A model generated the notes under the pieces. It was given only the letters and a program-made list of their open reading frames with translations. It searched no databases and had not been told where the DNA came from. Of a stretch of 64,000 nt of DNA, positions 61,971 to 63,422 are shown in pieces (the stretch's first letter is position 1; each line of letters starts with the position of its first letter). Position numbers and translations under genes: made by a program. This stretch comes from Escherichia coli (lineage in GTDB: Bacteria > Pseudomonadota > Gammaproteobacteria > Enterobacterales > Enterobacteriaceae), in assembly GCF_003018235.1 (NCBI RefSeq), contig NZ_CP027437.1. One strand, written 5' to 3'.

Positions 61971-62984
61971 CGTTTTTCCCTTATAATTACAGACGCGCAC
62001 TAGCTGTGCTGGGTTAGCAATAATCCAACATTTTAATCCTGATTATGTTTATAAAAGCGAACGTTTGCTTAATAACTAACGTAAGTGGACCAGTTCTTCT
62101 GAGCGAACTTAAATGGAGTAGCGATAGTTACTTATAATAACTTTGCCATACAAACGCCATGCTCTTGCATGCTATGTACCTTTATATATTTATCAATCTG
62201 ATACGAATCTAATAATAACCCTCATCATTAATGCAACTAATCTTATCTATATATCATGTGATATGTTCTGTAACAAGTAAAATCAACATAAAAAATTCAG
62301 CAAAATTTAATATTCGTTCAACTAGCCGTCTCACATATGACATTATTAGTCAACTGCATTTGCCACAAAATGGCTATTTCATGGAACGCAGTAATTTCTT
62401 AGTGGCTATTATCATGCTAATTCTTAGATCCCTAGCGATTATTCCTGCCTGGTTCGTCAGCTTAGGCCATGAGATTGTTACATTCCTTTTTATCCTGGAG
62501 ATATGGGGGAACGCAGGCGACGCTTTTTCATCTACATCCGTTGGTAAATATGGCTTTGGTCACTACGACTTAAACCTTCCTCAATCACAGCTATTCGCCG
62601 GGCGATACGGCAAACAAACTAAGTGAAACATCATTCTGAAAACACCAACATCAACAAGCCTCTCCAGATCGACATCAGGAGTGACCAGTTACAAGACACA
62701 AACCAAGAAACATATTTCATGATGAGAATTATGCTCAGCCTGATGGCGGGTAAACACTTATTTTCACCAAGCTCACTGAGTTAGCTTGCAAAGCTTTCTT
62801 TGTTTAGATTCTAAATAAATTTTTTATAAAACATATAGTTAGAAGAAAATCTTTAGTTTTTGAAGACCACCGCAAGTGTTCGTCTGGCTTCACATGGCAT
62901 CTGCCTCTTAGAAAAAGATCGACATATTTTGTGACACGAATTGCAAATCTGGTTTTGTTGTATGGATTGCGTGATTTTTGATCT

Positions 62985-63006
62985 GGTATAACAGGTATAA
63001 AGGTGC
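62985..63006. promoter_or_regulatory. Candidate NanR operator (GGTATA repeats) in the nanC-fimB intergenic region
   Basis: Sequence GGTATAACAGGTATAAAGGTGC, resembling the NanR GGTATA-repeat operator, ~420 bp upstream of nanC. Confidence 0.45.
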
Positions 63007-63422
63007 ACCACGATAGTCAATGAGACTGGGCATCTCGTAATCTATGGCAAACATCACTTCAGTTCTTTCACATCGGGTGATGAAAATGCACTTCAGTCTG
63101 AAAGGAATATGAAAATGAGATCAACAGACACTCTATTTTATGACTCTGGGTAAAATGGATTGAGTAAGTGATATAGCTTACGAACATTCAAATCAATTAA
63201 ACATCAGAAGAGATTTTATACTCAGGTATTTAATCTGGATCTCTGTTTATTTAAATAATGTGAAAAGAGAATTTTCACAGGAGACCTTATACAAAAAATA
63301 TAAAATAAGCTACCCGTTGCCAAAGACACTATAAGCCTGGCAAAAAATATTACACAACATAAATGCTAATTGTTTATGCGGGCTTTGTATTGCTTTCTGT
63401 ATCCTACAAATGAGTGAAATTT

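Follow-up and report, generated by a model that had tools for sequence, protein, structure and literature searches.

The fimB-nanC intergenic region of an Escherichia coli strain very probably carries the NanR operator known from K-12

Gene arrangement at the fimB-nanC junction

The window, i.e. the whole 64-kb stretch of DNA that was analysed, ends in the E. coli fim/nan junction, which appeared in reversed orientation with respect to K-12. In this orientation fimA, fimE and fimB are all encoded on the minus strand and nanC on the plus strand, so that the divergent arrangement of fimB and nanC given in the initial annotation was borne out. The two genes delimiting the region are the following:

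61368-61970, minus strand: coding sequence of fimB (recombinase of the type 1 fimbriae switch), ATG at 61970, from the list of open reading frames, the K-12 homologue being annotated in RefSeq
63423-64000, plus strand: coding sequence of nanC (N-acetylneuraminate outer-membrane channel), ATG at 63423, truncated by the end of the window, from the RefSeq annotation

The FimB protein was 100% identical to K-12 FimB, and the NanC residues falling inside the window were likewise all identical to those of K-12 NanC (192/192 aa). The gap between both genes extends from 61971 to 63422 and comprises 1452 bp with a G+C content of 36.0%, compared to 48.3% for the whole window, in which only 2.7% of the tiles of equal size were equally AT-rich; the AT-rich gap of about 1.4 kb described before was therefore confirmed. 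Regarding its edges, the right one (63422) had been placed exactly, while the left one, originally set at 62001, followed a GTG-extended fimB open reading frame and belongs at 61971. Moreover, the gap aligned end to end with K-12 MG1655 with an identity of 96.5%. The variability of the region was analysed in an alignment of 12 alleles of the gap sampled across the identity range, to which the term alleles refers hereafter. An open reading frame of 131 aa on the plus strand (62231-62626) is not regarded as a gene, since it was intact in only 4 of the 12 alleles and overlaps the fimB promoter region, and the Rfam scan of positions 61300-64000 matched no family. The nanR gene itself lies outside the window and, in K-12, more than 1 Mb away from this region.

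The NanR operator

Within the gap, the motif GGTATAACAGGTATAAAGGT had a single occurrence (plus strand, 62985-63004), and it defines the following elements:

62985-63007, plus strand: NanR operator ONR, assigned from the uniqueness of the motif, its identity to K-12, its invariance in the 12 alleles and published NanR binding
62978-63004, plus strand: 27-nt box TTGATCTGGTATAACAGGTATAAAGGT, common to the nanA and nanX (yjhB) promoters and containing the Dam site GATC (62980-62983) that abuts the operator

The operator consists of two perfect GGTATA repeats (62985-62990 and 62994-62999) separated by the spacer ACA and followed, after AA, by the partial repeat GGTGCA (63002-63007), which matches GGTATA at 4/6 positions and has the same sequence at K-12 nanC. 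The motif remained unique in the 64-kb window even with 2 mismatches. When the window was scanned with the 23-nt operator of nanA, the best match was found at 62985-63007 with 2 mismatches, compared to 7 or more elsewhere (7 for the next-best site). Furthermore, the 20-mer equals the operator core that experiments have defined for nanA and nanX, and the 27-nt box was identical in K-12 nanA, in nanX of strain 300081 and in the window.

The positions of the known operators were taken from McVicker 2011, FITBAR, the SELEX papers and Horne 2021. In the K-12 genome (NC_000913.3) the operator occupies positions 4539920-4539942, and the motif together with about 60 bp of its fimB-side flank was base-for-base identical to K-12. 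The alignment placed none of the known operators elsewhere, so the reading of this site as the K-12 operator stands. In addition, binding of NanR in the nanC/fimB spacer has been detected by genomic SELEX (PMC4797297; PMC5934670), and operators of the GGTATA type have been described within the promoter regions of three operons, namely nanCMS, nanATEK and yjhBC (Horne 2021, PMC8012715). According to the same work, two correctly spaced GGTATA repeats suffice for nanomolar cooperative binding of NanR, a repressor of the GntR/FadR type, and the minimum arrangement of at least two direct repeats spaced by 2-3 nt is present at ONR. An oligonucleotide with two repeats gave only two NanR complexes (Horne 2021, PMC8012715), and the degenerate third repeat (GGTGCA) suggests that this operator may be occupied by two NanR dimers instead of three. 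With this nuance, the initial identification of a NanR-type GGTATA operator was upheld by the unique motif, its identity to K-12 and the published binding.

GGTATA repeats might also arise by chance as a feature of AT-rich, H-NS-bound intergenic DNA without any regulatory role, in line with the 36% G+C content of the gap and with the 30 occurrences of GGTATA alone in the window. However, 100 dinucleotide-preserving shuffles, searched with up to 2 mismatches, did not contain the 20-mer once (0/100). This 20-mer coincides with the nanA/nanX operator core and is invariant in the 12 alleles amid variable DNA, at a place where SELEX binding has been found, and the chance explanation is effectively refuted.

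The NagC operators and the spacer between them

Two NagC operators of fimB, named fimB1 and fimB2, are printed in Table 1 of FITBAR (PMC3098098), and both were located in the gap, together with two further elements:

62923-62945, no strand assigned: NagC operator ONC1 (fimB1), exact match to the published 23-mer
62711-62733, no strand assigned: NagC operator ONC2 (fimB2), exact match to the published 23-mer
62917-62920, no strand assigned: Dam site GATC, adjoining ONC1
62814-62828, no strand assigned: IHF-like A/T tract at the midpoint of ONC1 and ONC2, a weak match with 1 mismatch to WATCAANNNNTTR

The centres of ONC1 and ONC2 are 212 bp apart. A NagC matrix built independently from 8 non-fim NagC sites ranked ONC2 first in the 64-kb window (19.9 bits), while ONC1 obtained 11.8 bits and the fifth position, which falls within the range of shuffled sequences and is thus no better than chance. 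Consequently, the assignment of ONC1 relies on its identity to the published site and not on the matrix. A CRP-like sequence, TGTGACACGAATTGCA, was found inside ONC1 at 62930-62945.

Regarding IHF, no exact match to the consensus was detected in the gap, where matches to WATCAANNNNTTR always had 1 mismatch. IHF reportedly binds midway between the NagC sites, which are 212 bp apart, and the activation by NanR is said not to need IHF, both findings being attributed to Sohanpal 2007. The spacer between ONC2 and ONC1 (62734-62922) was hypervariable, with 47/189 variable columns in the 12 alleles compared to 11% overall. The IHF-like tract is located within this spacer, and there the window allele differs from K-12.

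The predicted fimB leader, the candidate promoter and the SlyA operators

On the fimB side of the gap, the following elements were identified:

61971-62241, minus strand: 5' leader of fimB of about 271 nt, its start at 62241 deduced from the published position of OSA1
62248-62276, minus strand: candidate fimB core promoter read from the sequence, TTGTTA (62276-62271), 17-nt spacer and TATATA (62253-62248)
62409-62420 and 62424-62435, minus strand: SlyA operators OSA1 and OSA2, which overlap H-NS sites, located by their published sequences

The published SlyA sites are TTAGCATGATAA for OSA1, positioned at -179 to -168 of the fimB start, and CTAGGGACCTAA for OSA2 (McVicker 2011, PMC3173223). OSA1 was an exact match to TTAGCATGATAA, and its location at 62409-62420 on the minus strand sets the fimB +1 at 62241. 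With this anchor, ONR spans -744 to -766 of the fimB start, ONC1 -682 to -704 and ONC2 -470 to -492. The range published for the three operators, around 760-470 bp upstream of fimB (McVicker 2011, PMC3173223), was thereby reproduced at both ends by ONR and ONC2. The candidate core promoter lies 7 nt upstream of the deduced +1 and inside the longest run of invariant positions in the 12 alleles (62211-62324).

OSA2 presented one SNP compared to K-12 (position 62428) and reads CTAGGGATCTAA, a variant that appeared in the window allele and in 1 of the 11 other alleles. Through this SNP the published SlyA/H-NS3 site is changed, and a further Dam GATC arises at 62427-62430. Position 62415, in OSA1, also varies among strains.

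The predicted nanC promoter and leader

Between a CRP-like site and the operator, the upstream regions of nanC, K-12 nanA and nanX/yjhB (strain 300081) could be aligned in register, and the three of them have in common the CRP-like pattern TGTGA-N6-TnnCA. In the case of nanC, a -10 element (TATAAC, 62987-62992) is predicted inside the first NanR repeat, and the alignment points to a transcription start at about 62999, which would place the CRP-like site at about -61.5 and leave a leader of about 424 nt:

62999-63422, plus strand: predicted nanC leader of about 424 nt, its initial 190 nt or so paralogous to the nanX leader, its start deduced from the alignment with nanA and nanX

This position is put in other words in one review, and 415 nt separate the operator from the nanC ATG. 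The folding of the leader was no better than that of shuffled sequences (z = -0.85), so that a structured RNA element is unsupported by either the folding or the Rfam scan.

Alternatively, the operator might be remote for nanC too, the real nanC promoter being near the ATG and the operator, at -416, distant from both genes. Such a view would agree with a 59-bp run just upstream of the nanC ATG (63342-63400), invariant in the 12 alleles, and with the lack of a plus-strand promoter at the operator in the consensus promoter scan. However, the same scan gave no convincing proximal plus-strand sigma-70 promoter for nanC; it reported neither the fimB nor the nanC promoter and is uninformative because the promoter hexamers of both genes are weak. 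A remote operator is also at odds with the alignment in register with nanA/nanX, which involves the CRP-like site at about -61.5, the TATAAC -10 element in repeat 1 and the 27-nt box. At nanA, NanR is reported by Kalivoda 2003 to cover the promoter. The description of these operators as lying within promoter regions (Horne 2021, PMC8012715) argues in the same direction, and a remote operator was considered unlikely.

The paralogy between the upstream regions of nanC and nanX (yjhB) extends beyond the operator, relating positions 62915-63188 of the window to positions 1464-1747 of the nanX-bearing sequence L002. From the CRP-like site to the operator, 77 bp were 83% identical, and the leaders were similar over about 150 nt (local score of 28, whereas 300 shuffles reached 22 at most; z = 8.8), the distance from the operator to the ATG being 415 nt for nanC and 415-416 nt for nanX. 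Moreover, the predicted nanC leader harbours a 14-codon uORF, MKMRSTDTLFYDSG, at 63109-63153 (plus strand) with AGGA upstream. Its start falls within a 31-bp run, CTGAAAGGAATATGAAAATGAGATCAAC (63100-63130), which contains the Shine-Dalgarno-like AGGA and the AUG opening the uORF, was invariant in the 12 E. coli alleles and is conserved in the nanX leader. All 12 alleles kept the length of the uORF, in which one T/I replacement and one synonymous substitution were seen. Speculatively, nanC and nanX would share a regulatory module of some 270 bp that arose by duplication and reaches about 190 nt into leaders of more than 400 nt, and this common leader could mediate an undescribed post-transcriptional or leader-peptide control of both accessory sialic-acid operons, a proposal to which we assign a low probability.

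Conservation across strains

A total of 5,109 out of 5,426 complete E. coli genomes presented a match to the gap, which covered at least 80% of its length in 5,020 of them. In the 12 alleles, 166 out of 1,457 columns were variable (11%), while ONR (23 nt) and ONC1 with its CRP-like site (23 nt) were invariant and ONC2 had one variable position, located at its edge. Furthermore, the 108-bp block from ONC1 to ONR was at least 99% identical in 4,538 of the 5,099 genomes matching it. This pattern fits purifying selection acting on the operators.

The allele of the gap carried by the window is rare, with only 10 of the 5,109 matching genomes having an identity of at least 99% and most of them ranging from 95 to 99%; the closest allele was that of strain NRZ14408 (99.9%). 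Regarding the Dam sites, the GATC beside ONC1 (62917-62920) was replaced by TATC in 5 of the 12 alleles, and the one beside ONR (62980-62983) by GATA in 1 of them (L130, strain FSIS11705876). An IS5 insertion was found inside the gap in one match (H24, NZ_CM184348.1), and two others (H28 and H29) began at query position 264, the fimB-proximal part being missing.

Alternatively, the operator might serve nanC alone in this lineage, its distant action on fimB having been weakened or lost through allele-specific changes of co-regulatory sites. In favour of this reading are the rarity of the allele, the OSA2 SNP at 62428, an IHF-like tract that departs from that of K-12 and the hypervariable spacer between ONC2 and ONC1. 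Nevertheless, ONR, ONC1, ONC2 and the fimB core promoter were identical to K-12 and the FimB protein is intact. IHF, moreover, is reportedly not needed for the activation by NanR. As for the OSA2 change, SlyA acts independently of NanR and NagC (McVicker 2011, PMC3173223). A restriction of the operator to nanC was judged decidedly unlikely, and control of both promoters was retained as the preferred reading.

Beyond E. coli, a scan of contigs from other species with GGTATANNNGGTATANNGGT was too loose, and the matches listed were mostly due to chance and located in unrelated phyla. In at least 15 nanR-nanA loci from Citrobacter, Enterobacter and related genera, the 20-nt core was invariant and the third repeat variable, being GGTACA or GGTATG in some nanA operators of Citrobacter. 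In addition, a 3.3-kb contig of a metagenome-assembled genome ascribed to an uncultured Bacteroides sp. (L008, CAUHML010000277.1) contained an E. coli fimB (100% FimB) with a nanC-fimB operator of the K-12 type, as well as a second match to a fimB-like recombinase (52% to FimB), which is probably fimE. This contig almost certainly stems from E. coli and was mis-binned with Bacteroides.

Proposed regulation of nanC and fimB

Taken together, the motif very probably represents ONR, the operator bound by NanR in the E. coli nanC-fimB region, and serves both the nanC and the fimB promoters. For what follows, binding and regulatory outcomes were drawn from the K-12 literature and set beside the presence, uniqueness, identity to K-12, geometry and conservation of the sites obtained here; the strain would presumably behave like K-12.

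On the nanC side, ONR overlaps the predicted -10 element and start of a CRP-dependent promoter, where NanR dimers on the GGTATA repeats would keep RNA polymerase out until they are released by N-acetylneuraminate (Neu5Ac), and this release would lead to the induction of nanCMS. In one of the SELEX studies (PMC5934670), NanR remained on the nanC/fimB site even with Neu5Ac present. Moreover, NagC bound to ONC1 would cover the CRP-like site and compete with CRP, adding a control of nanC by GlcNAc.

On the fimB side, K-12 genetics shows that fimB is activated from afar by NanR and NagC bound in this region, with no dependence on SlyA. The NanR complex that acts on nanC, some 755 bp ahead of the fimB start, would help to activate fimB as well, and NagC at ONC1 and ONC2, with the IHF-like tract midway between them, would activate it independently. 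Since both regulators act as activators of fimB, sialic acid or GlcNAc would be expected to lower FimB, and the OFF-to-ON switching of type 1 fimbriae would fall. The initial proposal of a sialic-acid control of nanC together with a long-range control of fimB is therefore supported by the identity to K-12, the matching geometry and the published NanR binding.

The region would tie host amino sugars (sialic acid and GlcNAc, which are signals of inflammation or mucus breakdown) to two responses, namely the uptake of sialic acid via NanC and the suppression of type 1 fimbriae, which serve as a key adhesin during urinary tract infection. This link has been established in K-12 since 2003-2007, and the intact region found here would represent the standard circuit in this strain, being useful for annotation and not a discovery.

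Comparison with known systems

The region corresponds to the textbook control region between nanC and fimB in E. coli and is already known. In K-12, the ONR of the nanC (yjhA)-fimB region is said to have been described by El-Labany (2003), Sohanpal (2004, 2007) and Condemine (2005). Compared to it, the window has the same 23-nt operator with its adjacent GATC, both NagC operators, OSA1 and the fimB core promoter, as well as the same distances to fimB and the same divergent genes, and the gap comprises 1452 bp compared to 1455 bp in K-12. In contrast, the gap as a whole differs by 3.5%, including the OSA2 SNP with its extra GATC, several changes between ONC2 and ONC1 and in the IHF-like tract, and three indels of 1 nt each within A-runs of the nanC leader.

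The (GGTATA)3 operator of nanATEK-yhcH (Kalivoda 2003; Horne 2021, PMC8012715) has in common with that of nanC the 27-nt box, the repeat spacing of 3 and 2 nt and a CRP-like site at equal distance upstream. However, its third repeat is GGTATA instead of GGTGCA, and its leader has about 50 nt, compared to about 424 nt predicted for nanC. Unlike the nanATEK-yhcH operator, that of nanC has a NagC site overlapping the CRP-like site and also acts on the distant fimB promoter. Finally, the operator of nanXY (yjhBC) resembles that of nanC in the 77 bp with 83% identity, in its similar leader and in the about equal distance from the operator to the ATG, and differs from it by a perfect third repeat, by having neither the pair of NagC sites nor a divergent fimB, and by its location elsewhere on the K-12 chromosome.
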